NCBI RefSeq assembly: GCF_001889405.1
Contig: NZ_CP017921.1
Coordinates: 222,057-262,056 of the forward strand
Length of the DNA: 40,000 bases
Source: Methanohalophilus halophilus
GTDB taxonomy: Archaea; Halobacteriota; Methanosarcinia; Methanosarcinales; Methanosarcinaceae
Direction of reading: 5' to 3'
Part shown: piece after piece, positions 7,551 through 25,848 of the stretch
How the letters are laid out: each line of letters begins with the position of its first letter
Numbering within the stretch: the stretch's first letter is position 1
The notes under the pieces: generated by a model
What the model saw: only the letters and a program-made list of their open reading frames with translations
Databases searched by the model: none
What the model was told of the DNA's origin: nothing
Position numbers and translations under genes: made by a program

Positions 7551-7586
7551 AACGTTACAACTAAAAACATTATCAAAGGTCCAACA

Positions 7587-9098: not shown

Positions 9099-9165
9099 CC
9101 AGATAAACTCCTATGAAGCCTTGAACGCCCTCTGTGCCAATCCTCGGCGATATTGTGATTATGCT

Positions 9166-9765: not shown

Positions 9766-10365
9766 GTTTTCGACAGTAAATTTTGGAGTTTGACGTCTTT
9801 AAAAACCAGTTAAGCCTAGAAGTAAATAATCATATATCAGCAGGCGGGTTATAATAATAAAGGATAATAAAACACAAAAAGTAAACAACAAGTTTATAAG
9901 GTAAAATAGTTTAAAATGTTAAAGTTTGACGGATTTGTGACGGCACTGTAAAAATTTATTTGAAAAATATGGTAGTGGTGAACACGGGCTTAGAATCATA
10001 TTGTCTGGAGTGACAGACCCGTGCTCATGGTAGTGGTGTGCCAGTGGAATTTGAAATCATTTAACAAAGGAAACAAAATCTTCAGATTATAACAATATAA
10101 TGGAAGTTGAAAAAAGTCTTTTAAATCTGAGTCAGAAACTGTTCATGTATGTCAGATCCAAAAAGATAAAAACGCATTAACAGTAATAGTTTTGTTGGGT
10201 TTAATAAAGAAGAAATATTGAAACATATTTTCACAAAAACAACCATTGATGGAAATACATCGCCTCCATTTATTTAATTTTTGTATCTCTAGCAGTTAAA
10301 TTGAATCATCAGAGACAGTGAATTGGTGGATAATTTTTCCGTAATGGAAAATATGATTGAATAGC

Positions 10366-11967
10366 TCATTCATAATCAAAACTATAATAAATATATTCAC
10401 CATAGGGTTCGTCTCCATCTGAATTACCTTCTTCATCTTTTATTTCAATCGGTGTTAATTGCTTATCTTCATCATAAAACGAGATATCATTCTCCTTCAG
10501 AACACTGAAATAATCATCATTATCTAAAAGACCTGAATCATTTGGCGTAATCCATCCTTTCATTGTTGCTTCATAAGTCAACAACCACTTATTTTCGTAT
10601 AGTGATTCTGATGTTAGTTCATCAGCTAAAAAAGATGTATCTAAATCTGAATCAAGTAAATTTTTGTTTATCAGATCCAACACCAAAACCTGTGGAATAA
10701 CATCATTAGAACGAAGAATCGTATTCGCAAAATTTGCTGGGATTTTTATTTCAAATGTCTTAGCCATCCATAAAATCCATGAAAGTTCATAAGAATGCTT
10801 TTTGTAAAGATGTTGACCAAGTAATGTATGAATCAGATCTTTTATTTTGTTTTGGTTTTTAAATTCCTTATAATACAATAAAATTTCTATAATTGGTTTT
10901 ATTGTTTTTGCATCCAATAAAGTGCATTTAAATAATAGCGATTCAAACAAATCCCAATTTGATTCATAAATTTCATATTCTTTTATTCTTCTGATCGCAT
11001 ACTTAAGTACATGTTCACTTCTGTGTTCATCGAACAAATCAAAGGCCAAATTAAAATATTTCCAAATATCTTTTTCTTGCATGGATTCGTTTTTCCTTAA
11101 AGAAAAAGTACTTAGAGATAAAACCCATGGATCATCATAAGCCATTGGATAATGATTAATAATTGTTTTTTGTTCGTTTAAGACTAATTGATACTCATTT
11201 AAAATAGATTGTAAATAGACAATAAGGTTGTCAACATGATCTCTGTTTGACAAATAGAAGCAATAATCATCATAGTACCTATAACCCTTAAGATCAGGGA
11301 ATTCTTCTTTAAGTTTTTGATCTATTGCACAAAGTATAATTTCAGCAATAATGTGAGAATTATCAGGCCCGGTAGGAATTCCATTTGTTTGGCCTGACTG
11401 ACACGCTCTCATATATTTATCTAGTACATTGCCATAATATCTTTGGTAATCATTACGATTGTTTTTTGCTTCCTCTTTGGTATGCAATGCCCACGGAATT
11501 GAATGTGTGTAAATAGAAGGGTAAAACCAGGAAATATCTGTTTTTAGTTCAAACATTCTATCATAAGAACAAGTAATACATTTCTTCTTATATTGCTGAA
11601 ATGAGTTTAGAGTTTGTATCGAACGTTTATTTTTTGGATTTTCAAAACAATTTTCGACGGGCCTGCTTGTAGAAAGTTCTGATTTACTACAATGAGCTTT
11701 TATTTCTGCCCAATTATCAATTATGAATTTTGATAAATAAAATTGAGATATGGGGTTCACAATACTTAGTTTTCTTCTAATATGATTCTTTTTAGGAATC
11801 AAGTAATCCGTAAGTTGTGTATTTGGTATTTTAGGAACATCATTTCTAGATGTCGGATTCCATTGTGAATCAATTATTTGATGTTTGCTTGCAAAAGATT
11901 CTGTTGAAAATGCAGGAGGTAGTTCTTTTGGAAAATATCCATTTTCAAGTAAATTTTTAAGATTCAT
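10366..11967 (-). CDS. Reverse transcriptase of the defence-associated UG/Abi type (AbiK/Abi-P2-like architecture: RT domain + helical-repeat C-terminus)
   Basis: 533-aa ORF. It has RT motif A (KTDISWFYPSIYTHSIPWAL), a motif B-like segment (NGIPTGPDNSHIIAEIIL) and motif C YxDD (GYRYYDDYCFY). The N-terminal GYFPKELPPAF motif and the ~250-aa helical C-terminal region match non-LTR, non-group-II, non-retron 'Abi' RTs. No maturase/X domain or En domain is visible. Confidence 0.8.
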   Translation of the reverse strand: MNLKNLLENGYFPKELPPAFSTESFASKHQIIDSQWNPTSRNDVPKIPNTQLTDYLIPKKNHIRRKLSIVNPISQFYLSKFIIDNWAEIKAHCSKSELSTSRPVENCFENPKNKRSIQTLNSFQQYKKKCITCSYDRMFELKTDISWFYPSIYTHSIPWALHTKEEAKNNRNDYQRYYGNVLDKYMRACQSGQTNGIPTGPDNSHIIAEIILCAIDQKLKEEFPDLKGYRYYDDYCFYLSNRDHVDNLIVYLQSILNEYQLVLNEQKTIINHYPMAYDDPWVLSLSTFSLRKNESMQEKDIWKYFNLAFDLFDEHRSEHVLKYAIRRIKEYEIYESNWDLFESLLFKCTLLDAKTIKPIIEILLYYKEFKNQNKIKDLIHTLLGQHLYKKHSYELSWILWMAKTFEIKIPANFANTILRSNDVIPQVLVLDLINKNLLDSDLDTSFLADELTSESLYENKWLLTYEATMKGWITPNDSGLLDNDDYFSVLKENDISFYDEDKQLTPIEIKDEEGNSDGDEPYGEYIYYSFDYE

Positions 11968-12112
11968 TGTGAAGTTTATACTATCGTATCAACATTTAAA
12001 TTTTTGTATTCATTTCAAAAAATTTTGCCGAATTCTAGTGTACTTATAACTAAAAAGAATAGGGCAGTATATAGTTAATAATAAAAAAAGCAAACACTTA
12101 GAAATTGTTTAT

Positions 12113-12587
12113 ATGACTTTACATTATGAGATAATTGCCGAAGAAAACATGTTGAAAATATTCCAGCCTTTATGCAATAACAAGATTGACTGCCACTACT
12201 TCCAATGTACTGGATAAATGCAAAGGTATTAATTATAACAAAGAACGGGAAGGACAGACCAAGCCATTAAGCAATACGATTCTTGAGTATGTGAATCATC
12301 CATAACATAAGTTTGAGGATTATATTGGTGTTCTTGAAAGGAAGCATATTGATATTGATGGTTTCGTGTATATTGGCAAAGAGGCCAATGAGATTGATGA
12401 GCAAACTATGGACGTTTCAAGGCCACAGAAATTCTTGAATAAGGGATATGTTATGCAGAAGATACTTGATTAATCTCAAAAACAGGATGAGGAATGGGGA
12501 GTAGATAGAAAGACGTTTCAGAGAATCAAGAAGAGGATAATTGAGAATAGTGACATTAAATTGAATACTGTTGCTGTAAAAAACTAA
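12113..12587 (+). pseudogene. Casposon PolB C-terminal fragment (frameshifted, internally deleted)
   Basis: Translations across frames give TLHYEIIAEE, SLYAITRLTATTSNVLDK, KPLSNTILEYVNHP*HKF and RKHIDIDGFVYIGKEANEIDEQTMDVSRPQKF. These are collinear with residues ~655-888 of the intact PolB at 21018-23684 (KLHYGIISEE, SLYAISQLTVSTSNVLDR, KPLSNTILEYIDHPEHKF, RKHIDIDGFVYIGKEANDIDEQELDVVRPQKF). The fragment contains stops, frameshifts and a large internal deletion. Confidence 0.85.
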
Positions 12588-12656
12588 CTTCATCTTTACT
12601 TAGTTAAAGTTAGTAATAAGAAAACGTTTTCTAATGTTAGAGATAATAAAAAAACT

Positions 12657-13532
12657 ATGACGCGGCTCAAAGAAAACACTATTAACCAATTATCACGCTT
12701 GATTTGTGGTGAGGATTTTGATTTTTTACCGTATCGCAAATCATCTCAATTAACTGATTTTTTTCAAGAGCTTGGTTTTGACTATACTCATGATGGATCT
12801 ACCCGAAGATATTGGGTAAGAGACGTGTTAAGCGAAATAAACACCGAAACACCTTCAGATTCCGTATTTCCGTCTCCAGAAATAATTGCTGTAATTGAAC
12901 ACATATTAAATCCAGTGAATTTTCTTGATCTTCCTGATTCTGAAGAAAAACAAAATTTAGGCATTGAACGTGTAAATAAGCTGTTATCTTTACAAGACTT
13001 GTTTGTTGAAAAAGAAGAAAACGGTGCTGTTCAACTTCATTCTAGAAAAGGTGACTTTGTATCTACATCAGTAAATAGGGATGAGAAAAAAAGAGTGATG
13101 ACTTTTTCTCCTTCTGTTTTTGAATTGCCTAAAGGTTCCACAATGAAAAACTGCGTTTCCATAATGATGCCTTTTTCGAAAGAATTTGATAATGTATATT
13201 CCGCAATAAAAGCAGCCTGTGTTAGCGAAGGAATACCCTTTCACAGAGCTGATGATTTCTGGAAAAATAGTGTCATAATTCAAGATATTTTTGAACTAAT
13301 ATGCCGTTCATCAATTGTTATTGTTGATTTTTCAAATAGAAATGAAAATGTATTTTATGAAGCTGGTATTGCCCATACTTTAGGAAAACATGTTATACCA
13401 ATAACTCAAAGTATCGACAGTATACCTTTTGATTTGAGACATCATCGGCATATAGTATATCTAAACAATGGCGAGGGTTTGAGAGGGTTAGAAAAAAAGT
13501 TGATTGACCGGCTAGCTTCTCTAAAAGAATAA
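12657..13532 (+). CDS. Two-domain protein: helical N-terminal domain + C-terminal TIR-like / nucleoside 2-deoxyribosyltransferase-like Rossmannoid domain
   Basis: 291-aa ORF. The C-terminal ~130 aa show the pattern VSIMMPFSKEFDNVY..I......G.PFHRADD...........I..SSIVIVDFSNRNENVFYEAGIAHTLGKHVIPI....D.IPFDL. This pattern is typical of TIR-like/deoxyribosyltransferase-like domains, with the conserved Glu in YEAG. Confidence 0.55.
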   Translation: MTRLKENTINQLSRLICGEDFDFLPYRKSSQLTDFFQELGFDYTHDGSTRRYWVRDVLSEINTETPSDSVFPSPEIIAVIEHILNPVNFLDLPDSEEKQNLGIERVNKLLSLQDLFVEKEENGAVQLHSRKGDFVSTSVNRDEKKRVMTFSPSVFELPKGSTMKNCVSIMMPFSKEFDNVYSAIKAACVSEGIPFHRADDFWKNSVIIQDIFELICRSSIVIVDFSNRNENVFYEAGIAHTLGKHVIPITQSIDSIPFDLRHHRHIVYLNNGEGLRGLEKKLIDRLASLKE

Positions 13533-13590
13533 GTTTTGGAGAGGCGATGTTATGAAAAAAGACAATTTCGTCTATAAAGGGGAGTAATAG

Positions 13591-13929
13591 ATGAGTCATG
13601 AAGAACATTCTAAAATAACAAACGGTATCTATGTGTCTTTTGGAGAATTTGTAATTAATTCTGAATTAGTTGTAGAAAATATGAAACTATGTATTTATGA
13701 AATGTTTAGTAAAAGAGTGCTTAGTAATACCTTTGAAGGGCAGCAGTACTTAAATCTACTTTTAGCAGATTTTACATCCGCCCCTGTCAGGATGAAAATG
13801 AGAGTACTCATGGTTGAATCCTATATTAAGTTATCCAGAGACAAAATTCTCTGGTTGTTTTTTATTATTCTGTATGAGAAATCAAAACAAAAAAATATAC
13901 AAAATATTCTCAAATGCAACCTTTCATAA
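13591..13929 (+). CDS. Hypothetical small protein
   Basis: 112-aa ORF preceded by a purine-rich SD-like ggggag about 8 nt upstream of the ATG. No recognisable motifs. Confidence 0.35.
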   Translation: MSHEEHSKITNGIYVSFGEFVINSELVVENMKLCIYEMFSKRVLSNTFEGQQYLNLLLADFTSAPVRMKMRVLMVESYIKLSRDKILWLFFIILYEKSKQKNIQNILKCNLS

Positions 13930-13990
13930 TACTCAATAATCTTCAGGCAATATAATTGTGAATTTTCCTATTTCGTTTATTGCAATATAG

Positions 13991-14156
13991 ATATTCTGCC
14001 GTATTCCACTGGGCAATTCTATCTCTCCTGCTGAAGCTAAAGAAATCGGGATTAATAGTAGGAGTACATTGAATAAATTGAAAAAATAGGGCGAAAGAAG
14101 GGCATTTTAATTTGAATACGAAGGAGATGAGGAAGATATCCTTAAGTTTAATTTAA
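13991..14156 (+). pseudogene. Second casposon PolB extreme C-terminal fragment (HTH tail), frameshifted
   Basis: Translation gives IPLGNSISPAEAKEIGINSRSTLNKLKK*. After a 1-nt frameshift it continues NRAKEGHFNLNTKEMRKISLSLI*. This aligns with the intact PolB tail ILGLTPEDARRIGIKHRSALAYLKKKAKEGELNFKSRNMERIMDAFM. Confidence 0.7.
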
Positions 14157-14176
14157 TTATTCTCTAATCTATTTAC

Positions 14177-15025
14177 TCAAATATGCTTATAAAGACCCAT
14201 TTTAATCTTCCCACCTTCACCGAATTCAAGCTCTGAAAAACTAACTCCTTCAAGAAAGGTCATATCTGAATCTTCATAGCGGATTATATCTGAAATCGGG
14301 AGCTTTTTTAGTTCCTTCCACAAATGAACTTCAGCAGTAAAACCTTTTAACTGATACATTTCAGTTTCAGAAATCTCCATTTTATAGATTTGGTCTTTAT
14401 CAGCAAATGCAACTTTCTTTTGAATTCGAATTCCATCTTCTGGAATATCTTTGAATATTTCACTTTGTTTTACAATTACTTCTTGATAGAACAGTTCGTT
14501 CAAAGATAACTTTTCATTATTGGACATGAATTTTTCTTCATCACTTTCAAATTTAATATTATTACCATTATAATCAACTAATTCAAAAGTAAGTATTTTT
14601 ATAATTTCATATTGCTTATGTATTACTGGTAGACAATCACCTAAAAACCAAGAATGGATATCTTCTTTGCCGATTTGACTTAACACTCGTGTTTCAATTC
14701 CATAATGTTTTGCCGTTGTTTTTGCTGGTTCTGTAAAATCGTTAGATGAAACAGCTATTACTTTTTGAACGTTGAGATTTTGACACTTTGTTGCTAATTG
14801 CTCAATCCACATTGAATCCTGTTTAGTATTTCGATCTCTGCATTCTATGATTATTGTTAAAGGTATGGAGCCAATGTTTGCTTTAATTGAGATATCAACT
14901 TCTCTTTGCTGCCCAGTAATTTTGTCGATTAGAAAATCTGGAGAGGTAATTTCATATTCGTCTTTTGTTAATATTTTATGTAGCAGAGAAACCGTTTCTT
15001 CTAATTCTTTCCCTTTTCGTGCCAT
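14177..15025 (-). CDS. Restriction-endonuclease-fold (Mrr-cat-like) protein with unknown C-terminal domain
   Basis: 282-aa ORF. The N-terminus reads GKELEETVSLLHKIL ... QREVDISIKA ... TIIIECRDRNTKQ ... VIAVSSNDFTEPAKTTAKHYGIE, which fits the D...(D/E)xK nuclease core of Mrr-type enzymes. The C-terminal ~140 aa are unassigned. Confidence 0.55.
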   Translation of the reverse strand: MARKGKELEETVSLLHKILTKDEYEITSPDFLIDKITGQQREVDISIKANIGSIPLTIIIECRDRNTKQDSMWIEQLATKCQNLNVQKVIAVSSNDFTEPAKTTAKHYGIETRVLSQIGKEDIHSWFLGDCLPVIHKQYEIIKILTFELVDYNGNNIKFESDEEKFMSNNEKLSLNELFYQEVIVKQSEIFKDIPEDGIRIQKKVAFADKDQIYKMEISETEMYQLKGFTAEVHLWKELKKLPISDIIRYEDSDMTFLEGVSFSELEFGEGGKIKMGLYKHI

Positions 15026-15180
15026 TAAAAATTAAATTAATTGTCATGGTTAAAAAAGTATCTGATAATGATTTCTTTTTAATGATAAATGTGGTTATTT
15101 GAGTTTTTTATTTTTGGGTAAAGGTGTACATTTTTTCTTAGGAAATTAAAAAAATGGTTGTGCGTACAGAGTGCAAAACG

Positions 15181-15211
15181 CCGTACACTTTTTTCGCGTT
15201 GTATATATCCC
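15181..15211. repeat. Degenerate casposon terminal inverted repeat (right end of decayed distal element)
   Basis: ccgtacacttttttcgcgttgtatatatccc aligns without gaps to the intact right TIR gcgtacaaaaaattggagataactatatccc (19/31 identical). The cgtaca block and the terminal tatatccc sit at the same spacing. It directly abuts a TSD copy. Confidence 0.6.
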
Positions 15212-15225
15212 AGAAAAATAGTGCG
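15212..15225. repeat. Target-site duplication copy 1 (agaaaaatagtgcg)
   Basis: Exact 14-bp match to 19588-19601 and 28530-28543. It lies between a TIR-like right end and a TIR left end. Confidence 0.85.
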
Positions 15226-15387
15226 GGGATATAGTTATCTTAGATTTTTTGTACGGTATCTGTATTCTTTGTTCTTACTTAAAATAGAATGATTTATTTT
15301 AATAGTGGTTTTATATATTTGACAATATATTAATTCAAAATATGTTTTGGTTTAAGAGAAATTATTTTGTACAAGTATATTTAATGA

Positions 15388-15750
15388 TTGGGTATGAAGA
15401 AAGATGAACTTTTTATTAGAGAGTTTATTGTTGGATTAGGCTTTGTAAGTGGTTTATGGATTGCTGTTGGAATAAATCCAGAATCCCTAATAATTGAACA
15501 ACTAGTAAAAATTGGGAATACATTAACACCAAAACATAATTTTGGGTTTCTATTAATACTACCAAGCATAACTACTTTAATATCAATTATAAGTGCGTGG
15601 TTTTATGGTGGAGTTTTGGGTATGATTGCTATATTACTTGCTTTTATTAGTGGCATACTAATAATTCATTTTACCATGATAGCATCTGTTTTTTTGATGC
15701 TTTCTTTATTATTGGCTTCATTATCTGTAGATAATAATTATACTTATTGA
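15388..15750 (+). CDS. Small integral membrane protein (about 3 TM helices)
   Basis: 120-aa ORF with hydrophobic stretches: VGLGFVSGLWIAVGI, FGFLLILPSITTLISIISAWFYGGVLGMIAILLAFISGILIIHFTMIASVFLMLSLLLASL. Confidence 0.55.
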   Translation: MGMKKDELFIREFIVGLGFVSGLWIAVGINPESLIIEQLVKIGNTLTPKHNFGFLLILPSITTLISIISAWFYGGVLGMIAILLAFISGILIIHFTMIASVFLMLSLLLASLSVDNNYTY

Positions 15751-15764
15751 ATTGATTCATGGCC

Positions 15765-16070
15765 TTAATAAACATAATTAATAAGATAGTTATTGAGATT
15801 AGATATGGTTTTGTATTGTAATTCTATTAAGTCAGGTAATTTTTTAACAATTGGTAGTTCTTGGCTATAAATACTTGTGGGATATATGACATTTCTAAGC
15901 CTTGATTTGCTATTACTTTTTGTTCTTATCGGATAACGTGATAATATTGAATGAGTTAGTGGGATTTTTGCTAAAACATAAAGTGGTCCCAATACACTTA
16001 TGAATTTAAGGGCCTGCAATATTATTTTTTTTATATCAATCGAAAGTTGCAGTAATTGTGAGTCATTCAA
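15765..16070 (-). CDS. Hypothetical protein downstream of the HEPN gene
   Basis: 101-aa ORF located 6 nt downstream of the HEPN gene stop on the same strand. It has no recognisable motifs and is not an MNT nucleotidyltransferase (no GS...D.D motif). Confidence 0.4.
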   Translation of the reverse strand: MNDSQLLQLSIDIKKIILQALKFISVLGPLYVLAKIPLTHSILSRYPIRTKSNSKSRLRNVIYPTSIYSQELPIVKKLPDLIELQYKTISNLNNYLINYVY

Positions 16071-16076
16071 TTCAGA

Positions 16077-16664
16077 TTAAATATTAACAGATCCCAATTG
16101 TTCTTTATCTATATATTCACATTTCTCAAAATTACTAACTAATTGATTTATATTGTCTTTCCATTGTTTTAGATCTATCGAAGATTGATCTAAGGATTCA
16201 ATACTTTTTTTAATAGAAATTTCTAATTCAGAGACACTCTGAAAAATATCATTTATCTCGCGGGTTGATAAGAAATAAGGATTACGCTTAGATTTTTGCA
16301 TCTTGCCAATTTCCCGCAAGCCATTTTCACAGTGTACTATATTTTCTTCAGGTGATATTTCAATCAAAGAAAATATTTCATTAATTTCTGGAATATGATT
16401 AAGTAATTTAGCAGATCTTTGATATTTTTCTTTTTGGTCAATAAGCATTCTTTTATATATTTCCATAGGATCGTGTCTGATTTCTAGCATGGATTCTTCA
16501 TCGAATTTTCCAGAAGATAAAGCAAGTGCTTTGTTTGCCTTTTCCACACTTTGGGCAAAGAAAAAGATTGATTGTGGATAACATTTATTTTCATATAATA
16601 CAACTGAAGATTTTAAATCAGATTTTGCGAGTTTTACAAATTCTTTTACATATTTCATACTCAT
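16077..16664 (-). CDS. HEPN domain protein
   Basis: 195-aa all-helical ORF. The N-terminal signature AKSDLKSSVVLYENKCYPQSIFFFAQSVEKANKALAL is the classic HEPN helix 1-2 pattern (A..DL..A........y.....a.Q..EKa.KA). Confidence 0.65.
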   Translation of the reverse strand: MSMKYVKEFVKLAKSDLKSSVVLYENKCYPQSIFFFAQSVEKANKALALSSGKFDEESMLEIRHDPMEIYKRMLIDQKEKYQRSAKLLNHIPEINEIFSLIEISPEENIVHCENGLREIGKMQKSKRNPYFLSTREINDIFQSVSELEISIKKSIESLDQSSIDLKQWKDNINQLVSNFEKCEYIDKEQLGSVNI

Positions 16665-16705
16665 TCTCTCGTATATAATTATGCCATATTTATACCTTCA
16701 CTCAA

Positions 16706-16786
16706 AAAACACAACAAATTTATAATTCATCATATAAATCTTACTGCATAATAATTGTGTGATAAATTATAAATTTGTTGTGTTTT
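16706..16786. promoter_or_regulatory. Perfect 22-bp inverted repeat in the divergent intergenic region (operator or RNA hairpin candidate)
   Basis: aaaacacaacaaatttataatt (16706-16727) and its exact reverse complement aattataaatttgttgtgtttt (16765-16786), separated by 37 bp. It lies between the divergently oriented HEPN gene and the 754-aa gene. Confidence 0.6.
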
Positions 16787-16958
16787 ATTAAGTGTGGGGA
16801 ACAGATTTCTATAGAAATTACTACCTCTGGATAAACAACACAGATAGATATTATAATGATAGATTTAAATGAAAAATGCTTAATAAAGACCTACAAAATA
16901 TATAATATGAAGAAGAATGAAATTTTAATTATGGAATATCAGATACAATTTACTTGGA

Positions 16959-19223
16959 TTGAATAGCATGGGCACATATAAAAAAGAGACGCATAGCAAA
17001 GACTTATATGAGCTATATAAGCATGCAGAGAAAAACACAAAATCCGATTTCATTTCTATTTTTCGATGGTTGCGTAATCAGAATCAAATACTTGGCATAA
17101 ACGATTTACTCAAACTTCAACAGTATAATTCTCCTAACTATGGACATTGGGAAGTACCACTTTCAGTTATCCAATTATACAATATATTGCTTAATTCGAG
17201 AAAGTCTAAAAATATTCTTGATCCAGTAGGGAAATTAGGTTTGTTAGGGGGCATAATCTCAGAAAATGAAAATGTTCAAAATGTCGACATTGTAAGCAGT
17301 TTGCATGAATCTGAAGAAATAATACAATCAGTAAATATGCCAAAAGTTTCGCTTACTATTGGAAATATTATTGATCTCAAAGATAATTTAAAAGATAACT
17401 ACGATGCAATAATAGGCATACCACCAATAAATAACAAGGGGGATGTCAATAATAATTTAGTGGAAACTGCAAAAATGTTGTCCAAGGAAGGAATAATTGC
17501 TTTTGTAGTACCACCTCGCATTGCTTGGGATAAAAGCAAAAAATCAATAAAAGTGTCTCTAGAAAACAACGGATTATACCTGTCAGCATTATTGCAATTC
17601 CGTCCGGGAACATTTACTACAACAAATATACCTTTTTATCTTGCAATTTTTGAAAAAGTCAATCATGATACTTTGTTCGTAGGGGAAGTTCCTGAAAAAT
17701 ATGATGAATATGATGAATTGATAAAATGCTTTTCAAAAAGAAAAGAGGGAGAAACTATAAATCAAGGAAGATTGGTAGACCCCAATAATTTTAATGGGAT
17801 CAAATCTCTCAAAGCAAAAGAAAGAGCAAAAAAACTTGCTTCAGAAAGAGGACTTAAACCCATTCCTTTTGATAAGGTAGTTCACACAATAAATACTCCT
17901 AAAAAGAGAGGAAAAGATTTTGAAAGATTTGATGAACACCCAGATGCGGTTTATTTGCCTCAAATGGCAACAACAGAAGCAAAAACTCATCAAAACGATC
18001 TATCTCCGAAATTGAAATCATATTTGCAACTGATAGTCAATCATGATGTTGTTTTACCTGAATATTTAGCTGAATGGCTTAATACAACATTGGGTATTGC
18101 CTTTCGGGAATCAGCAATGCAAGGAATAACTATACCCAGAATAAATAAGAGCAATCTTCTATTAAGTAACCTTTACTTGCCTTCTGTTATAGATCAGCGT
18201 AAGGCATTAGATGCTCTTCTTTCAATTCAAGAAATGAAGTCTGATCTAGATGAGCTTGGGTCCAAAATATGGTATCAACCTTTAAATGTGTCAGAGGTCA
18301 TAACATCTTTAGAAAAAATTAATAGAGAGGAAGTATTTGGCGATTGGATAGAATCTCTTCCATACCCCCTCGCTTCAATTCTTAGATCATATGATACAGT
18401 AGACCAAACAGACAAAGACAAATATGAACGGCTCTTGCTTTTTTATGAAGGATTTGCTGAATTTTGCGCAACGGTGCATATTAGTGCATTTAAGAAACAG
18501 CCAGCTATTTGGGAGCCATTGAAAAATAAAATAAAACAAGTAATGGCTGAGAATAATTTTTCATTTGAAAAACCAACTTTTGGTTTGTGGGCCTCTATAA
18601 CAAGTATATTGGCGAAAGAATTACGTTCAATGATTAATGGAAAACAAGATGATAAAGATGCTACAAATGCACTTTATGAAACAGCTGATTTAGAACCATT
18701 AGAAATATTGTCATCCAAATCTTTAGTTAATTTAATAAACGAAACTAATAAAAAACGCAATGATTGGAGTGGTCACACAGGGGCTGTTTCCCAAAAAGAA
18801 GCTCGTGAAAGACATGACCACCTGAAAAACCAACTATCAAATTTGCATAAAATAATAGGTGATCTCTTCCAACAATATAAGCTTGTGGAGGCCGAGCCAT
18901 CAGGAATTGATGCTTTGACAGAGTCAAAGTTTAAGTGTAAAGTTAAATTAGTAATGGGTTCAAATCCTCTTCTTGAACGTCAAACATTGCAATTGAGTAT
19001 GACGTTAATTACAGGGTCATTATATATGTATAACATTGGAAATGATAGGGTTCTTGAACTGGTCCCATTTATTCAGGTCACTGAATCTCCACAATCTGCT
19101 AGTTACTTCTATAATAGAGTGGAAAAAGAAGGGTTACGCCTTGTTTCTTATCAAGTTATTAATGAATCAGAAATATTTAGAAAAAATCAGTACCTAGAGG
19201 ATTTGATAAAAAGTTTTACTTAA
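16959..19223 (+). CDS. Fusion protein: degenerate N6-MTase-like domain + HsdS-like TRD + C-terminal helical domain with HEPN-like Rx5H motif
   Basis: 754-aa ORF (TTG at 16959, first ATG at 16968). It has a Rossmann-like ILDPVGKLGLLGG and an atypical motif IV, AIIGIPPIN (I instead of N/D/S before PP). An HsdS-like segment reads GITIPRINKSNLLLSNLYLPSVIDQRKALDALLSIQEM. The C-terminal helical region contains KKRNDWSGHTGAVSQKEARERH. Confidence 0.55.
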   Translation: MNSMGTYKKETHSKDLYELYKHAEKNTKSDFISIFRWLRNQNQILGINDLLKLQQYNSPNYGHWEVPLSVIQLYNILLNSRKSKNILDPVGKLGLLGGIISENENVQNVDIVSSLHESEEIIQSVNMPKVSLTIGNIIDLKDNLKDNYDAIIGIPPINNKGDVNNNLVETAKMLSKEGIIAFVVPPRIAWDKSKKSIKVSLENNGLYLSALLQFRPGTFTTTNIPFYLAIFEKVNHDTLFVGEVPEKYDEYDELIKCFSKRKEGETINQGRLVDPNNFNGIKSLKAKERAKKLASERGLKPIPFDKVVHTINTPKKRGKDFERFDEHPDAVYLPQMATTEAKTHQNDLSPKLKSYLQLIVNHDVVLPEYLAEWLNTTLGIAFRESAMQGITIPRINKSNLLLSNLYLPSVIDQRKALDALLSIQEMKSDLDELGSKIWYQPLNVSEVITSLEKINREEVFGDWIESLPYPLASILRSYDTVDQTDKDKYERLLLFYEGFAEFCATVHISAFKKQPAIWEPLKNKIKQVMAENNFSFEKPTFGLWASITSILAKELRSMINGKQDDKDATNALYETADLEPLEILSSKSLVNLINETNKKRNDWSGHTGAVSQKEARERHDHLKNQLSNLHKIIGDLFQQYKLVEAEPSGIDALTESKFKCKVKLVMGSNPLLERQTLQLSMTLITGSLYMYNIGNDRVLELVPFIQVTESPQSASYFYNRVEKEGLRLVSYQVINESEIFRKNQYLEDLIKSFT

Positions 19224-19587
19224 TGAAAGAAGGGAGTTATGAAGATTCTAACTATTACCAAATATAATATAAAAAGTACTCTTAGACAGTTTCCAAAAAA
19301 ACAATCATTAATGATGAAAATATATTCTTTTCATCAGCATTTCGAGTATCCATGCACAAAGTGATAAATGTATTTTGAGTAGTAGGTCCTTTCAAAAATA
19401 GATTAATGCAGTTTGGTCAAATGTTGCTTTTTATTAGTTAGTAAGTATAAAATACGAATTAATATAATTTTTTGGTGGTTGTATTTTTCAATTCTACCTA
19501 TAACCCCGATTTTATGTGTGAGTGATAAAATTCGAACCAAAACTTTCTAAAATTCTGAGTATCTTATTTTCAGGATACCTATATCCC

Positions 19588-19601
19588 AGAAAAATAGTGC
19601 G
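19588..19601. repeat. Target-site duplication copy 2 (agaaaaatagtgcg)
   Basis: Exact 14-bp repeat. It separates the right end of the non-autonomous element from the left TIR of the intact casposon. Confidence 0.85.
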
Positions 19602-19632
19602 GGGATATAGTTATCTCTAATTTTTTGTACGC
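19602..19632. repeat. Casposon left terminal inverted repeat
   Basis: See the casposon feature (19602-28529). This TIR matches the reverse complement of 28499-28529 at 30/31. Confidence 0.9.
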
Positions 19633-19845
19633 TAAGTATTTACAGACTTATTTAAATTAACTACTGGGTTAATCTTTTAAATTGAAACCCAGATAAATGT
19701 ACAGAACGTTCAATTCACATCTTCTTTTAAAAGAGTGTCACTTTTTCGCAAAAGGAACATTTTTATAATAAACGGTTTATGATCCATTATCATTATACTT
19801 TTTTATAAAATGATGTAATATATCATGTTAAATATAGTTTGATTA

Positions 19846-20787
19846 TTGGGTGGTATTATGTATTGCCATAATTGTGGTTCAGAAATAGATGATAATGATG
19901 CTGCATTTTGCTCAAAATGTGGAACTAAAATCAAAAAAATAGAAAAAGAAATATTGTCCTCTACACTTGATGTAAAAAATGAAGAAAGTAGGAAGGATGA
20001 ATCATATATTGAGTTAGATACAGCCAACCAAAATAACACATCTATTAAAAAAGAAAATCCAGATTCGTGGGTTTTTATAAAAATATGTGCATATATAATT
20101 TGTGCTGTGGTTATTTCTTCCTTATTTATAGGCCTGTATAATATTGGTAGTGATTTTTATGGGGGTGAGGGAGCGTTTGTACAAGGTGAAGGTGGAGAAG
20201 GATTCGTTGCTTCAAATTCTGATATTACCCATAGCTTAACACAAGAACAAAAAAACACTCAAATTTGTGAAGAAATTGTACAAAACTACTATGAAACCCA
20301 TACATACGTATCGGATGATGTTTTTGATTGCGATAACATGGCAATGGATGTTTGGAATTTAGTAGAAAGTAAAGGAATAAATGCTGAAATTGCCGTGGGT
20401 AATGTAGATATGAAGGATGCAAATTTAGAAGATATCAATCATGCTTGGGTAATAGCAGAAGTTTCACCACAAAATTGGGTAGCTATAGAATGTACCAGTG
20501 GTTATCTTACATATGATGATGTGTATTATTCGGGTTGGTTCTTTGACAACCCTAAAAACTATCAAAGTTTTTTAAATGTATATACCACTTGGGAATATAA
20601 ATATCAAGAATATGAAAATTATAGATTATATTATAATGAATTGGTTGAACAGTTTAATGAGGCTGATGCCTATGAGCAAGCCTCACTAAGAAGTGGTCTT
20701 GAAATTGCAAGAGAAAATCTTCATCAAAAAGAAAGAGATTTTTTACAGGCTAAAACCGAATTAAATGCATTATTAGAATATGGGTAA
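19846..20787 (+). CDS. Zinc-ribbon / TM / transglutaminase-like cysteine-protease-fold protein (casposon cargo)
   Basis: 313-aa ORF whose likely true start is the ATG at 19858 (MYCHNCGSEIDDNDAAFCSKCG zinc ribbon). It has one TM helix (WVFIKICAYIICAVVISSLFIGLY). A Cys...His...Glu/Asp arrangement (FDCDNMAMDVWNLVESKGINAEIAVG ... INHAWVIAEV ... WVAIECTSG) resembles the transglutaminase-like core. Confidence 0.6.
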   Translation: MGGIMYCHNCGSEIDDNDAAFCSKCGTKIKKIEKEILSSTLDVKNEESRKDESYIELDTANQNNTSIKKENPDSWVFIKICAYIICAVVISSLFIGLYNIGSDFYGGEGAFVQGEGGEGFVASNSDITHSLTQEQKNTQICEEIVQNYYETHTYVSDDVFDCDNMAMDVWNLVESKGINAEIAVGNVDMKDANLEDINHAWVIAEVSPQNWVAIECTSGYLTYDDVYYSGWFFDNPKNYQSFLNVYTTWEYKYQEYENYRLYYNELVEQFNEADAYEQASLRSGLEIARENLHQKERDFLQAKTELNALLEYG

Positions 20788-21017
20788 ATATCATTATGAA
20801 ATTGAATATATTTCAAAAACATCTTTCCAGAAAACTTCAAGGACTGCAACAATTAAAATTACAGTTTCATCGCGAAAAGCTTTATTGTTTAAATTATTGA
20901 TTTTTTCAAAATTTATTTCAAATGCTTTGTTAATATCTTGTATTCATGGATTTTATCATTTTGAGACATAAACAAAATAATGTATGTCAACACTTATTGT
21001 TTTATTGATTCAGAGCT

Positions 21018-23684
21018 TTACATAAAAGCATCCATAATTCTCTCCATATTCCTACTCTTAAAATTCAACTCTCCTTCCTTTGCTTTTTTCTTCAAGTAAG
21101 CCAAAGCACTCCTATGTTTAATTCCAATCCTTCTGGCATCTTCAGGAGTTAAACCAAGAATAAACTTCTCCACTGCTTTTCCATCAATGAACTTTTGAGG
21201 TCTTACAACATCCAACTCCTGCTCATCAATATCATTGGCCTCTTTACCAATATACACAAACCCATCAATATCAATATGTTTTCTTGCAAGAGTGCCAGTA
21301 TCACCCCCAAACTTATGCTCTGGATGATCTATATACTCAAGAATCGTATTGCTTAATGGCTTGAAATAGTAAGATCCTTGCCTGACTTCTCCAGTCTGAT
21401 AATCAATAAAAGACTCATAAACTATCTTCTGATAATCCTTAGTAAAAGGTGCTAAAGGCTTGACAACCTTGTCATTTTCTTCTGTTGTCTGAAACCCAAC
21501 CAGAAAGAAATTGAATGGTTTGATCTGTTCTCTCCATTCCTTGACAGCATTAAGATCCTTGAATCTATCCAATACATTGGAAGTACTGACAGTAAGCTGA
21601 GAGATTGCATACAGGCTAGAATATTTCTCAACAATATCTTCCTCAGAAATAATCCCATAATGTAACTTGAGTATATCTTGCCAAATTTCAGCCTGCCAAT
21701 CTTCAACATCCTTTGGAAACGGATTTGTTAAATGACCAAGCCCATGAAGTTTGTAAGATCTCTCTCCTTCCATGAACTCAATTTTATCCTTGTTTAAGTT
21801 GTAGAGTGCATATCTCTTGGAAGAGATCCCATAAAACCACATATCCTCTTTCTCAGGCTTCAATAAAGGAATATCCAGAGCATAAGGATTCAATGGCTGG
21901 AAATAATCAACTATCTCCTGTGCATTTTCAGGAGGAACAAAGATTGAATCTGTATCCATATAAGCATGAGTTCCACCAAGTTCTTTGAGTCTGGCTTCAG
22001 CCATAGCCAGAAAAAGCCTTGAACCTGCTGTAATCATGACTGCCACAAAAGGATGATAGAAATTACCTGGCTTTTCAAACCTATTCTCTGAAGTACTGAA
22101 ATCATCAAGCCCATAAACCTGAATATCACTTTTCTTATCTTCTGGATTAAGTTCAATAAAGATCCCATAACTCATTGCGTTAACAAGAATCTTGATGGCC
22201 TGTGCTCTGCTCTTTAGATGTTGATATTCAGGATCTTTTTTATCAAGACTTTTCATATCCTGTTTTATCTTTTGCCTTTCCTCAACCATTATCTTGGTTA
22301 GGCTTTCTTTGGATGGATCAATATTTATTCCAAGTATCTCCTGAATGTTCAAGTCATCCTGAATCCCAACAGGAACAAACTTGACAGCCTCTATGATCTC
22401 AGGGGTCTTTCCAGTTAATAGGACAGAACCGATAACATCAGGCAAAGCATACCATAAACCATCTTTAGAACTTACATGATTTAATCCAACATTATAACTC
22501 TCATTCTTGCCTTTGTAATCCATCCTTACAGGCAATATATCCTCATCTGGTTTCAATTTAACAAGGATATTGAAATGAGGCCAGTTATCTGGATTTTGTA
22601 AATAATCAAGATCTATATTGGAAAGAATCTTTTTTGCTTCCTCTGTTGCATCTTCAGTCTCAATCCTGTCAGCAATCAAAAATGGCCAGAGATCCAACAT
22701 TAAAGTAATAGTAGGATACATACTGGTAAAATCAAGAACTGTAACTTGGGTTGGTGTTTTCCTGATCTTGCATTCACACCTGCCACCAAAATAAGCAGTC
22801 ATTATATTTCCTAACATCTCAGGAGAGAAATCAGGATTCTTTTCTAAAAATGGGTTTATTCCAATTTGTTTCATGGCATGTTTACCAAGAGAAGCAGCAC
22901 TAAACACTCTGGTTATGGGTATATCAATACCATAAAGATCCAGTTCTTTCACAAGTTCCCTGTAAACTTCAAAAGTAGTTTTGACATCAGTTACAAGATA
23001 GTCAATATACTTCTCAGTAACTCGGCCATGTTTTATATTCTTCTTTTTCTTAATGTTGGTATTGAGCCTCTCTCCTACCTTATCAAGTGAAATATGATTC
23101 TTTGATTGAAGGAGTACTTCAGCCAGTTTTTGAGCATCTAAAAAGTATCCCCCAAAATACTCTTTACCCTTGTTTTGCTTGGTTGTTGTGAATTTGAAGG
23201 AATAAGCAGTACCAAGTTTTTTGATAACAATTGGGGGTTTAACTCTATCATCTGACAGAGTAAGAGTAAACCCACCTTTGTTTTTCCCTCTGGAATTTCC
23301 AGATCTCTTGGCTATCCTGCTTATATCAAAGGCCAGATTGAATCCAACACATAAAGTTTGGAAATCATATACCTCTGTATAGAACACATTATCTACAAAA
23401 TCAGATAGAGTATAGATAGATATAGTATGTCTAGATGCATAGATATTCAAGGCTCTTGTTTCCCTTACATCCAGCATTGAAGGATCATAAAATAACCCTT
23501 CATGCTGAATATAGCCATCCTGATATATCTGGAAATATCCAATTTTCATGTTTTGGTACTGGTCTGTTGTAGTCTCAGTATCAAAGACCAATACTCTATC
23601 ATGTCTCAAAGGTGTGGTTGGAGTTTCACCCTTCCATGCTTTCTTTTCTTTGTGGGTGTATCCCCTCACAGCAACCTTAGTCAT
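21018..23684 (-). CDS. polB: Protein-primed family B DNA polymerase (casposon PolB)
   Basis: 888-aa ORF with Exo I (VLVFDTETT), Exo II (GFNLAFDISRI), Pol motif B (KILVNAMSYGIF), Pol motif C (HAYMDTDSIFV) and a C-terminal HTH-like tail. Confidence 0.93.
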   Translation of the reverse strand: MTKVAVRGYTHKEKKAWKGETPTTPLRHDRVLVFDTETTTDQYQNMKIGYFQIYQDGYIQHEGLFYDPSMLDVRETRALNIYASRHTISIYTLSDFVDNVFYTEVYDFQTLCVGFNLAFDISRIAKRSGNSRGKNKGGFTLTLSDDRVKPPIVIKKLGTAYSFKFTTTKQNKGKEYFGGYFLDAQKLAEVLLQSKNHISLDKVGERLNTNIKKKKNIKHGRVTEKYIDYLVTDVKTTFEVYRELVKELDLYGIDIPITRVFSAASLGKHAMKQIGINPFLEKNPDFSPEMLGNIMTAYFGGRCECKIRKTPTQVTVLDFTSMYPTITLMLDLWPFLIADRIETEDATEEAKKILSNIDLDYLQNPDNWPHFNILVKLKPDEDILPVRMDYKGKNESYNVGLNHVSSKDGLWYALPDVIGSVLLTGKTPEIIEAVKFVPVGIQDDLNIQEILGINIDPSKESLTKIMVEERQKIKQDMKSLDKKDPEYQHLKSRAQAIKILVNAMSYGIFIELNPEDKKSDIQVYGLDDFSTSENRFEKPGNFYHPFVAVMITAGSRLFLAMAEARLKELGGTHAYMDTDSIFVPPENAQEIVDYFQPLNPYALDIPLLKPEKEDMWFYGISSKRYALYNLNKDKIEFMEGERSYKLHGLGHLTNPFPKDVEDWQAEIWQDILKLHYGIISEEDIVEKYSSLYAISQLTVSTSNVLDRFKDLNAVKEWREQIKPFNFFLVGFQTTEENDKVVKPLAPFTKDYQKIVYESFIDYQTGEVRQGSYYFKPLSNTILEYIDHPEHKFGGDTGTLARKHIDIDGFVYIGKEANDIDEQELDVVRPQKFIDGKAVEKFILGLTPEDARRIGIKHRSALAYLKKKAKEGELNFKSRNMERIMDAFM

Positions 23685-24018
23685 GTTTCATCAACTCATG
23701 TCCATAACTGAGCAACTGATCCCCTATACCCCTGAGTAATGCACCAACTGAGATAAACCAAAATCCCCTCTGTTCAATAGGTTTGGCCTTTTTTGACCTT
23801 TTTTTAGGACTTACCTTGTTCTGTTCTGCTGTAGTTTTGAAATGGCAGCTCTTGCATAGAGGAATTGTTTCATCAGAATTGCATCTACCATAAACATGAT
23901 GCATCTCTATGACAGAAAGATCATCCTCTCCACATTCAACACAACAAAGAGATGTTTGCTTGTTTCTCTTCTGCTTCCTTGTAGCCTTTAGATATGTTTC
24001 TTTATCCATCTGTATCAC
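23677..24018 (-). CDS. HNH endonuclease
   Basis: 113-aa ORF with CCVECGEDDLSVIEMHHV ... TIPLCKSCHFKT (HNH/zinc-finger signature). It overlaps the PolB start by 8 nt, which suggests translational coupling. Confidence 0.85.
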   Translation of the reverse strand: MIQMDKETYLKATRKQKRNKQTSLCCVECGEDDLSVIEMHHVYGRCNSDETIPLCKSCHFKTTAEQNKVSPKKRSKKAKPIEQRGFWFISVGALLRGIGDQLLSYGHELMKHD

Positions 24019-24023
24019 CTCCT

Positions 24024-24665
24024 TTAGCTCTTGTAAATCTCCAGAAATTCAGGTTCTTCAATAGTTTCTCCAATTTCATACAGTCTCTCAAGGCTGGTCT
24101 CAAGTCTGTACTCGTTACCATCAGCATCCTTTATCTTCATATCCTTGAACTTCTCAAGACCTGAAGGATCTCCTGTTTTCAAGGCCTTCTGTACAGCAGC
24201 AAAATATTTTCCAATCCTTGATCTATCTCTGGAATTGGTGACAACAATACTGGTTACTCCTTCATCTTCAGAGTAGATCAGCATTTCAGACTGAATAGAA
24301 TCAGTTTTTGTGACCTGCCATCTGCCACCCTCTTTTTCCAGATGTGTTCCAAGATGCTTGAGAGCAAACTGTTTGTTTACTCCAAGTTTACTGGTGGCCT
24401 CACTCAGAGTTTTACCATGTCTCATTTTCCTCAAAATTTCAAGGGATAGGTTTCTATCCCTTTTCTGACTTGAAGACAGGTTTTGCCATACTGTATTGCT
24501 GAGGTCATAATCACTTATCTTCAGATTCCTTAATTGCTTCAGACTTTTATCAGGGGAATACTGATGTTTCCTGATTATCCCCTTTGCATACCTGGAAGTC
24601 CTTGATTGAGCATTGAGCCACTCACCATAGGTTCTGTGCTTTCTGGAGAAACGTGGTCTTCCCAT
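24024..24665 (-). CDS. HTH DNA-binding protein (casposon core-associated)
   Basis: 213-aa ORF with an HTH-like segment KTLSEATSKLGVNKQFALKHLG. It is in the same operon as HNH and PolB. Confidence 0.6.
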   Translation of the reverse strand: MGRPRFSRKHRTYGEWLNAQSRTSRYAKGIIRKHQYSPDKSLKQLRNLKISDYDLSNTVWQNLSSSQKRDRNLSLEILRKMRHGKTLSEATSKLGVNKQFALKHLGTHLEKEGGRWQVTKTDSIQSEMLIYSEDEGVTSIVVTNSRDRSRIGKYFAAVQKALKTGDPSGLEKFKDMKIKDADGNEYRLETSLERLYEIGETIEEPEFLEIYKS

Positions 24666-24805
24666 TATTTCTCAGCCTCCCAGAGTTTCAGTAATGCTAT
24701 CCTGATAACTTCAGCCTGAGAGCATCCAAACTTATCTGACAACTGTACAAGTGTCTCCTTGAGATAAGGAGAAAGTGTTGTTATTATTCTTTCACTTTCA
24801 TTCAT
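24665..24805 (-). CDS. Small ribbon-helix-helix (CopG-like) protein, absent from the supplied ORF track
   Basis: Manual translation of the minus strand gives MNESERIITTLSPYLKETLVQLSDKFGCSQAEVIRIALLKLWEAEK* (46 aa). This is a beta-strand followed by two helices with the typical S..EVIR.AL pattern. Its TAA overlaps the ATG of the next gene by 1 nt (ATAATG). Confidence 0.5.
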   Translation of the reverse strand: MNESERIITTLSPYLKETLVQLSDKFGCSQAEVIRIALLKLWEAEK

Positions 24806-24939
24806 TGGTTTTCACCAATAGACTGTATGTACAGCCATACTGATATTAACAATGATATTGATTTTAATACTAAAATGAGCATTAATGATATAAACCATAA
24901 CAAATATGATATTATATTAGATAGTGAGAGGTAGAAATA

Positions 24940-25848
24940 TTGATACAAAATGAGGCTGATTTTGAGGAGGAAGTTGTTCAGTATTTAAACAAGAATGGCA
25001 AGATGCGAAGAGAGCAGTTGATTAAAGTACTTATTGAGGCGCATACACAAACAAACGAAAAAGGAGACAAATTTGTAGATGGTGGATATAGTAAACCCAC
25101 AATTAATAGAAAACTTGGAGATATGCTTGGATCTGGTAAAATCATAAGATTGAATTACCACCAGCTTAAAAACTATGGCTTTTCTGAAGATGATGGGAGG
25201 GCAACATATCTGTTTACTGAGGAAGGGCTACGATTGAAGACACATATTGATGAGGTACTCAAGCTTCTTGCTTCAGATGATGAAATTGATAAACAGATTG
25301 CTTTGAAAGAATTAAACCGATACAGTGAAATTTACTCTTTTGATGAAACTCAGCTAGATTTAATCGTGCAAAATCTAGCCTCCAAGAACGCAGAATTGAC
25401 AAACAAGTTTCTTACTACTCTCAAAAATTACATCATCAACAGAGGAAAAGAGCCGACGGATAAAAAAGCCTTGTTGAACGCTCTAAAGATCGTGCTGGAG
25501 AAGCATGGAGAACCAGCCGGAAAAAACAAGGTCACTAGAGAAGTGGCCATCCTTTTACTTAGCCACTATAAAGACGAATATGTACTTGACCAGCTCATCA
25601 AAGATGCAAATGCCTTGGATAATCCTCTAGAAGTAGAAGAGGATTATGCCCATGACCCTTCGATGATTGCTGATATTATCATAAAAAATCCTTCAAGACT
25701 ATTTGAGGCTGAAAGGCAATTGACAAAAGAAGGAAAATATGATGCTTCTCAGTTCATTTCAAATATAAGGGGTCGGTGCATGAGGGCATTTCGAATGAAT
25801 GATGCTGAAAAAGCAGAGATTCAGAAAAAACTAGAAGAGGAGTTATAA
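24940..25848 (+). CDS. Hypothetical protein, N-terminal winged-helix-like domain + helical repeats
   Basis: 302-aa ORF with a TTG start preceded by gagagg. The N-terminus reads VVQYLNKNGKMRREQLIKVLIEA ... YSKPTINRKLGDMLGSGKIIRL, which is wHTH-like. Its stop overlaps the Cas1 start (TAATG). Confidence 0.5.
   Translation: MIQNEADFEEEVVQYLNKNGKMRREQLIKVLIEAHTQTNEKGDKFVDGGYSKPTINRKLGDMLGSGKIIRLNYHQLKNYGFSEDDGRATYLFTEEGLRLKTHIDEVLKLLASDDEIDKQIALKELNRYSEIYSFDETQLDLIVQNLASKNAELTNKFLTTLKNYIINRGKEPTDKKALLNALKIVLEKHGEPAGKNKVTREVAILLLSHYKDEYVLDQLIKDANALDNPLEVEEDYAHDPSMIADIIIKNPSRLFEAERQLTKEGKYDASQFISNIRGRCMRAFRMNDAEKAEIQKKLEEEL

Follow-up and report, generated by a model that had tools for sequence, protein, structure and literature searches.

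The tandem array and the ends of its middle member

The window analysed here is a stretch of 40,000 nt from Methanohalophilus halophilus (contig NZ_CP017921.1, positions 222,057 to 262,056 of the forward strand), 100% identical to contig RJJG01000001 of GCA_003722055.1. Its subject is a 4362-bp unit at 15226-19587, here called B, which carries defence-type genes between two casposon-type ends and shows no trace of Cas1 or PolB. B stands second in a tandem array of three members, which reads remnant A, B, C and tRNA-Leu, A being the casposon remnant on its left and C the apparently intact casposon on its right. The array arose through casposases integrating repeatedly at the 3' end of the tRNA-Leu gene, always into a single 14-bp target. 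It lies in an AT-rich island that extends to position 28719 and has about 30% GC. The conserved host genes on the right of this island, from 28720 on, have about 45% GC and encode a SOUL-family protein, a DNA-alkylation repair protein, UvrB and others.

The array is punctuated by a 14-bp target-site duplication, AGAAAAATAGTGCG, whose three exact copies are the only ones in the window and whose reverse complement opens with the CGCA motif (Table 1). A first-pass annotation, made by a model from the DNA letters, had described the segment as flanked by an exact 14-bp repeat; this is correct, and a third copy stands beside the tRNA-Leu gene. The CGCA motif is also that of casposon targets in Methanosarcina (PMC6977970, PMC4779613), and the duplication in the M. 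mazei casposon system is likewise 14 bp long, with 4 bp in common with tRNA-Leu (PMC6977970). At the two junctions of B the exact repeat amounts to 37 nt (15204-15240 = 19580-19616), in which the duplication stands between the last 8 nt of the preceding element and 15 nt from the left inverted repeat.

Both ends of B start with GGGATATAG, and all element termini read …TATATCCC-3', the terminus (5'-TATATCCC-3') seen bound by the M. mazei casposase in a co-structure (PMC6977970). The end pairs of B and C follow the pattern GGGATATAG… / …CTATATCCC, and their four ends agree in the first 9 nt. The match of 27/31 that had been claimed between the left ends of B and C was reproduced and applies to both C ends. 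The claimed 20/31 for the right end, read as its reverse complement, was likewise recovered, with 13/14 over the terminal 14 nt.

One could suppose that the end- and repeat-like sequences around 15212-19601 arose by chance in AT-rich DNA and that the segment is ordinary island DNA, given that the region has 30% GC and that its right end matches at 20/31 only. We attach next to no credence to this explanation. The right-end similarity, which the first-pass annotation had proposed to set against shuffled AT-rich sequence, proved significant in 2000 shuffles of the island, where a match of at least 20/31 had a per-position probability of 1.4e-5 and one of at least 13/14 a probability of 4e-7; these values, of 1e-5 to 4e-7, apply at positions already fixed by the duplication. 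In the real window, either threshold is reached by the four ends only. For the 23-nt junction motif, the number of matches expected by chance is 0, and the right end is kept in four other loci. Chance similarity of the right end was ruled out on the shuffles and the whole-window scan.

Table 1. Coordinates of the array members, their ends and their genes (positions in the window)
Feature	Position	Strand	Remarks
Target-site duplication, copy 1, AGAAAAATAGTGCG (reverse complement CGCACTATTTTTCT)	15212-15225		exact
Target-site duplication, copy 2, AGAAAAATAGTGCG	19588-19601		exact
Target-site duplication, copy 3, AGAAAAATAGTGCG	28530-28543		exact; between C and tRNA-Leu
Left terminal inverted repeat of B, GGGATATAGTTATCTTAGATTTTTTGTACGG	15226-15256	+	27/31 to both C ends
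Right end of B	19541-19587	-	terminal 14 nt form an inverted repeat with the left end, 13/14
Membrane protein gene of B, 118 aa, hydrophobic	15394-15750	+	called gene in public assembly
HEPN-family gene of B, ~297 codons	15765-16664	-	broken by in-frame TAA at 16077-16079
Palindrome, 38-nt arms, 5-nt loop	16706-16786		87% complementary; divergent intergenic, between HEPN gene and 751-aa gene
751-aa protein gene of B	16968-19223	+	three-part protein
Remnant A, right-hand part, inverted orientation	12119-15211	-	PolB fragment, cargo open reading frames, terminal inverted repeat
PolB C-terminal fragment of A	12119-12536	+	tblastn
Cargo open reading frame of A, 291 aa	12657-13532		weak TIR-effector match
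Cargo of A, Mrr_cat nuclease	14177-15025		Pfam
Terminal inverted repeat of A, GGGATATATACAACGCGAAAAAAGTGTACGG	15181-15211		reverse complement; casposon end
Casposon C, family-2-type, apparently intact	19602-28529	+	33-nt inverted repeats, 97% complementary
PolB of C, 888 aa	21018-23684	-	Pfam DNA_pol_B_2
Cas1 of C	25848-27050	+	Pfam Cas_Cas1, E 4.6e-68, nearly whole profile covered
tRNA-Leu(tag)	28539-28624	-	last bases overlap duplication copy 3

Absence of core genes from B

Searches for casposon core genes inside B were negative throughout. Cas1, PolB and six other proteins of C gave no tblastn match at E<=1 against 15226-19587, and the open reading frames (ORFs) of 21 metagenomic casposon loci gave no match to B in tblastn or tblastx. 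Pfam returned no Cas1 or PolB match within the unit, and none of its small ORFs resembled an ORF of the casposon loci retrieved. The tblastn, tblastx and 21-locus ORF searches thus brought up no hidden Cas1 or PolB remnants, and the tblastn, tblastx and Pfam results bear out the original observation that B has no casposase and no polymerase. Measured by the features of an autonomous family 2 casposon, B lacks both Cas1 and PolB and possesses the terminus and the duplication.

Cargo genes of B

The unit carries three genes and not the four ORFs first listed, as the "hypothetical" ORF of 101 aa and the "HEPN" ORF of 195 aa are one broken gene. The first gene encodes a 118-aa membrane protein with Kyte-Doolittle 19-residue means of up to 2.8 and no match in Pfam, PADLOC or NCBIfam. 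The second belongs to the HEPN family (PF05168, E 9.7e-6, 26.2 bits against a cut-off of 22, residues 7-53). Homologues have 284-289 aa and can be aligned to 16658-15771 without a change of frame. The TAA is codon 196 and precedes the invariant H…RYP block, limiting the product to the N-terminal 195 aa; as it reads in this genome, the HEPN gene of B is a pseudogene. The near-perfect palindrome in the divergent intergenic region may be an operator.

The third gene encodes a protein of 751 aa, in which an N6-adenine-methyltransferase fold with a target-recognition domain (aa ~60-430) is followed by an all-alpha part (~440-636) and a beta part (637-740). Its AlphaFold2 model has a mean pLDDT of 88.3, and the top Foldseek matches in the PDB are HsdM, M.TaqI, CamA and M.BseCI (E 1.8e-13 to 1e-6). 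Matches in Pfam and PADLOC are weak; that in PADLOC is to a type I S-subunit, over aa 308-433. In an alignment of 41 sequences of the family, R597 and H603 are invariant and N598 nearly so, forming an RNx4H motif in the all-alpha domain. Motif IV of the family reads xxPPxG, without the N/D or the aromatic residue, and appears as GIPPINN in the window protein. Lacking (D/N)PP(Y/F/W), the protein is probably not an active methyltransferase.

This gene had been described as a fusion of a methyltransferase-like part, a target-recognition domain and a HEPN-like part. Foldseek upholds the fold and the recognition domain, with motif IV missing, and the HEPN-like part would correspond to the domain with the RNx4H motif. 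We infer that the 751-aa protein is a DNA-sensing effector of the abortive-infection type, in which a pseudo-methyltransferase/DNA-recognition module is joined to a HEPN-like RNx4H domain. As for the suggestion that casposon ends serve here as a vehicle for an immunity or toxin module, the cargo is indeed of defence type, but the module is partly decayed, its HEPN gene being a pseudogene.

Relatives of the cargo and of the right end

Homologues of the 751-aa protein form a family of 46 clusters (25-48% identity; ~775 aa; loci L006-L015) that recurs in both bacteria and archaea and is not covered by a model of its own in Pfam, NCBIfam or PADLOC. In four of the five other distinct contexts examined, they lie between hsdS and hsdR of type I restriction-modification (R-M) operons, and HEPN homologues adjoin such operons in both of their contexts, namely Methanohalophilus sp. 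WG1-DM (L038) and the contig L042. The gene neighbourhoods of these homologues suggest that the cargo genes of B are satellites of type I R-M systems. In the window, they are detached from hsdRMS, 6 kb off the nearest hsd gene.

Homologous cargo occurring always without terminal repeats and duplications had been named as a finding that would speak against the proposal. This is the case at six of the seven cargo-homologue loci, where casposon-type ends are not present, the exception being L042 (SRR17165204), which has a B-type right end. This contig contains a 310-aa ORF, the closest homologue of the B HEPN protein (39-40% aa identity) and hsdR-hsdS-hsdM, and stops 13 nt past a sequence ~80% identical to the last 48 nt of B. 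A B-type right end also closes a unit of the metagenomic locus L017 that ends at 2754 and has hsdM as its last gene. Compared over 43-69 nt, the right ends of L042 (7514-7561) and L017 are ~80% identical to that of B.

The outer 21 nt of this end match, at 20/21, a repeat beside tRNA-Leu in L016, and a near-identical sequence occurs in M. mahii. In L016 (1763-3330), a metagenome-assembled genome, the end belongs to a decayed remnant; it directly follows tRNA-Leu(tag) and precedes a gene for a 391-aa membrane protein and a PolB C-terminal fragment. M. mahii DSM 5219 (CP001994; L041 10706-10750) has a solo repeat directly after tRNA-Leu(tag). These occupants of tRNA-Leu in M. mahii and L016 are a different, older remnant and not B, and casposon remnants at tRNA-Leu seem to be ancestral in Methanohalophilus. 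On these alignments, B has on its right a genuine element end, which belongs to another lineage than the ends of C and is found repeatedly with type I R-M cargo.

The region next to this end was also considered as a fossil junction, with a right repeat, a duplication and the 3' half of a tRNA-Leu inside B (19476-19567). Compared with the junction in the metagenomic locus L025, this candidate scored 22 in a first pass (0/3000 shuffles). It was rejected as such because 19541-19567 is conserved end-family sequence, shared with L042 and L017. The remaining 19476-19540 contains a decayed end-like sequence (reverse complement GGGTTATAGGTAGAATTGAAAAATACAACC), a duplication-like 14-mer and a stretch with ATTCGAACC that resembles a tRNA-Leu 3' end. 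Its score is 15, reached in 2/3000 shuffles and 6/1000 real-sequence controls, making it a weak candidate fossil of an older junction.

Comparable units in metagenomes

Metagenomes were scanned for tandem junctions with the pattern TATATCCC-N10/11-TGCG-GGGATATA, which returned 21 loci, most of them true casposon/casposon junctions with mixed end types. Among viral contigs, neither end pattern was matched. The Logan contigs L002-L005 are the same locus as in the window and not independent copies; they break where the 37-nt junction repeat exceeds k=31.

A second cargo-only unit was found in L025 (Ga0209163_1000031; 8707-13190, 4484 bp). Inverted repeats close it on both sides, its 14-bp duplications (AAAAAATTAGTGCG) are exact, and it directly adjoins tRNA-Leu. 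Its genes encode a TPR protein and two uncharacterised proteins, and no Cas1 or PolB trace was found in it. The distal neighbour is cut off where the locus ends, and at that point has a Cas1 C-terminus. The neighbour of the unit encodes a 1084-aa TPR protein with an LmuB/ABC-ATPase-like head and a 487-aa LmuB-like protein.

Other loci contain shorter or more decayed units. L017 (Ga0206328_164; 1-9919) comprises at least five casposon-derived units with differing duplications, two of which (2769-3999 and 5636-6910) are internally deleted to ~1.2 kb and keep one cargo gene each, for a FilR1-like regulator and a GNAT acetyltransferase, together with a Cas1 C-terminal fragment. In L035, a two-ended mini-unit of 200 bp (1223-1422) lies beside tRNA-Leu(cag). 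Core fragments, that is, Cas1 or PolB C-termini, are kept in most decayed units, namely in A, in L016 and in the L017 units at 2769-3999, 4014-5621 and 5636-6910.

Origin of B

We think it fairly probable that B is a casposon-derived non-autonomous unit, and probably a chimera formed by deletion. Its ends are of two lineages, C-like on the left and of the L042/L017 type on the right, for which a deletion fusing former array members is the simplest origin. Casposases integrated repeatedly into the same 14-bp target at the tRNA-Leu 3' end, building up the array. Efficient integration requires the duplication and ~30 bp of the tRNA (PMC6977970), so the newest insertions should be tRNA-proximal; by this published biochemistry, A would have come first and C last, with B in between. 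In the chimera scenario, two former members of the array would have been fused into B by deletion or recombination, either in place or before arrival. The left piece of B, with the left inverted repeat and the small membrane-protein gene, would mirror the left end of C, where the repeat is followed by a membrane/zinc-ribbon gene. The right piece, with the HEPN gene, the 751-aa gene and the 48-nt end, would mirror the L042-type lineage with its type I R-M genes. The first-pass annotation had named, as its own alternative, an internally deleted remainder of a larger rearrangement, and an in-place deletion fusing two members does give the same structure and accounts for B as well as mobilisation in trans would.

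Both termini of B would keep the short sequence that casposases require, making its integration by the casposase of C in trans conceivable. The M. mazei enzyme integrates 17-bp ends and even 8-nt single-stranded ends in vitro (PMC6977970), and in vivo, an engineered mini-casposon with nothing but cargo is integrated and gives rise to tandems (PMC10359463). As such ends suffice in published biochemistry, the termini of B should suit the casposase of C, and by this analogy its mobilisation in trans is plausible. The proposed cargo-only derivative that the adjacent casposase could mobilise is upheld as regards a casposon-type unit beside an intact casposon; a sign of movement as a unit is missing, its cargo occurring at this locus only.

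Several observations weigh against our reading of B and its cargo. The right end departs from the inverted repeat of C past 14 nt, and the L042 and L017 contigs end too early to assign the right-end lineage to Cas1-encoding elements. The chimera scenario is built on resemblances in gene order and end type, with no parent element identified. In exact-sequence look-ups, B was found at this locus only, in M. halophilus assemblies and runs, and its proteins have no relative above 48% identity among 5.8 billion clusters, leaving it a singleton. A scan of genome collections with the flanking SOUL protein gave one related locus (L016) and no strain-level empty site, and no presence/absence polymorphism, empty site or second-site copy of B was found, strain-level data for M. 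halophilus not being available. On the side of the cargo, the HEPN-like label of the C-terminal domain of the 751-aa protein comes from the RNx4H motif alone, and the C-terminal model (pLDDT 92) has no significant Foldseek match in the PDB. Two of the comparisons suggested at the outset bear on the same point: that for presence or absence of exactly 15226-19587 plus one duplication yielded no polymorphism, and that for the same cargo between casposon ends elsewhere yielded no both-ended copy, only L042 with its HEPN homologue and B-type right end.

Alternatively, B may have integrated as it is, a cargo-only unit inserted in trans between A and the tRNA gene before C arrived. This would fit the exact duplications on both sides, the termini in keeping with known casposase requirements, and the absence from B of the core-gene remnants that most decayed array units retain. 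The cargo-only unit of L025, tRNA-proximal and presumably the newest insertion there, has exact duplications too, and the engineered mini-casposon behaves in just this way in M. mazei (PMC10359463). However, the same duplications are expected of every array member regardless of its history, and no second copy, empty site or close cargo relative of B was found. Two end lineages are, moreover, unexpected for a simple internal-deletion derivative of one casposon. We consider insertion as such rather unlikely compared with the chimeric origin. The broader proposal, by which casposon ends would set apart a natural class of "cargo casposons" (such as B and L025 8707-13190), mobilised in trans and loaded into tRNA-Leu arrays by a resident casposase, is put forward tentatively, as an idea that we ourselves regard as doubtful.

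Finally, B and C together (15226-28529, 13.3 kb) could be one composite casposon with B as its left-arm cargo region, in that the left end of B and the right end of C match at 27/31, are 88% complementary over 34 nt and have the same flanking duplication. Within this span, however, an exact duplication lies between a right-end terminus and a complete left repeat (19574-19634), which is the mark of two separate integrations and not of internal cargo, and we hold the composite to be highly improbable.

Remnant A and the surrounding island

The PolB fragment of A aligns with aa 687-867 of the PolB of C (41% identity, E 2e-28, tblastn) and is 82% identical to its polB over 180 nt, in inverted orientation. 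Besides the cargo listed in Table 1, A carries an ORF of 112 aa, and its end, GGGATATATACAACGCGAAAAAAGTGTACGG, matches at 28/31 a repeat type common at many metagenomic casposon junctions. Neither a left end of A nor a fourth duplication was found with up to 3 mismatches or in 31-mer profile scans. Farther to the left, a defence reverse transcriptase of 533 aa (10366-11967) matches PADLOC Drt4 at E 2e-194 but scores below the NCBIfam Drt4 cut-off.

Synteny with M. mahii (92% nucleotide identity) ends exactly at 28720. The 42 nt from there on (28720-28761) are an orphan 5' portion of the resident tRNA-Leu; they agree in every letter with the tRNA-Leu of L016, whose distance from the SOUL gene is the syntenic one. 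At 28539-28624, 95 nt to the left of the orphan half, the functional tRNA-Leu is a different allele with acceptor GCGAGGG instead of GCGGGGG. An island of at least 28.7 kb with its own tRNA-Leu and array thus seems to have come in from outside, taking the place of the 3' half of the resident tRNA gene, and the array may therefore have been assembled elsewhere.

The window also contains a type I R-M operon (1307-9098; hsdR 1307-4063, hsdS 5550-7550, hsdM 7587-9098), whose HsdS has an ASCH domain at its N-terminus. Between hsdR and hsdS lies a candidate defence gene of the PDC-M11A type (4085-5587; PADLOC E 3.5e-152). At the far right, a 408-aa ORF (38589-39815) has a Cas12f1-like/TnpB TNB domain (E 1e-22) and is probably a TnpB of the IS200/IS605 family.

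Significance

The CRISPR adaptation machinery presumably descends from casposons, which to our knowledge have so far been described as autonomous elements, as inactivated copies or as solo inverted repeats. If the reading is right, a natural two-ended cargo-only unit would show that Cas1-type integrases sustain a parasitic or hitch-hiking layer, as other transposases do. In the same vein, strict tRNA-gene target sites could expand into arrays of accessory and defence genes, arrays of cargo casposons would parallel leader-proximal spacer acquisition at the level of transposons, and Cas1-based integration would help to shuttle immunity genes. With two defined ends, a target and an adjacent casposase, the locus is a testable substrate for the stringency of end requirements in vivo. 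The 751-aa family, for its part, recurs as an unannotated satellite of type I R-M operons and is a candidate for a new defence gene.

Comparison with known systems

The nearest known systems are the family 2 casposons of Methanosarcina (such as MetMaz1FA1A3-C2 and the tandem pairs in Methanosarcina sp. 2.H.T.1A.3; PMC4779613, PMC6977970), whose terminus …TATATCCC is like that of B. As here, they have a 14-bp duplication starting with CGCA over the tRNA-Leu 3' end, form tandems that share the duplication, include inactivated copies or solo repeats in their arrays, and carry variable cargo near their ends (reverse transcriptase, TPR, methyltransferases). Casposons in tandem have been reported, as have inactivated copies and solo inverted repeats (PMC4779613). 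The described inactive Methanosarcina copies, however, keep core genes (PolB with stop codons) or consist of a solo repeat, whereas B combines both ends, the duplications and long cargo ORFs with no Cas1 or PolB trace. B further differs in having ends of two lineages and in its host, Methanohalophilus. Casposon cargo on record already includes HEPN, OLD, methyltransferase, reverse transcriptase and nuclease genes (PMC6563490, PMC4779613). The first-pass annotation knew of no description of this cargo combination. Casposons with HEPN and methyltransferase cargo are in fact known (PMC6563490, PMC4779613), but for a natural cargo-only casposon derivative no description was found in the full-text literature ("non-autonomous" or "MITE" with casposon).

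The mini-casposon of M. mazei Go1 (PMC10359463) resembles B in being cargo-only DNA flanked by casposon inverted repeats and duplications, and it was inserted by the chromosomal Cas1solo in tandem with the resident casposon, at its duplication. That construct is artificial and bears a resistance marker, whereas B is natural, carries defence-type genes and is a candidate for mobilisation.

Deletion derivatives of the Ac/Ds type and miniature inverted-repeat transposable elements (MITEs) are like B in lacking a transposase, in having ends that match an autonomous partner of the same genome and in making the same duplication as that partner. Non-autonomous DNA transposon families are normally recognised by their many dispersed copies. 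Unlike the MITE and Ac/Ds families, B is single-copy and sits at its partner's own strict target site.

The array as a whole recalls Tn7-like elements at attTn7 (PMC8649781), where the site is set by a conserved gene and reused, inactivated elements pile up and the cargo includes defence genes; the analogy between casposon islands and Tn7-like islands has already been drawn (PMC4779613). Tn7-like elements differ in using TnsB and not Cas1 and in the architecture of their ends, and casposons are thought to be self-replicating via PolB.

The cargo has parallels of its own among the defence genes that are embedded in type I R-M operons, PrrC being one. GmrSD in Vibrio cholerae VPI-2 likewise sits in such an operon (PMC11411939), like the homologues of the B cargo. 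Unlike these R-M-embedded defence genes, the two genes of B sit between casposon ends, away from hsdRMS.

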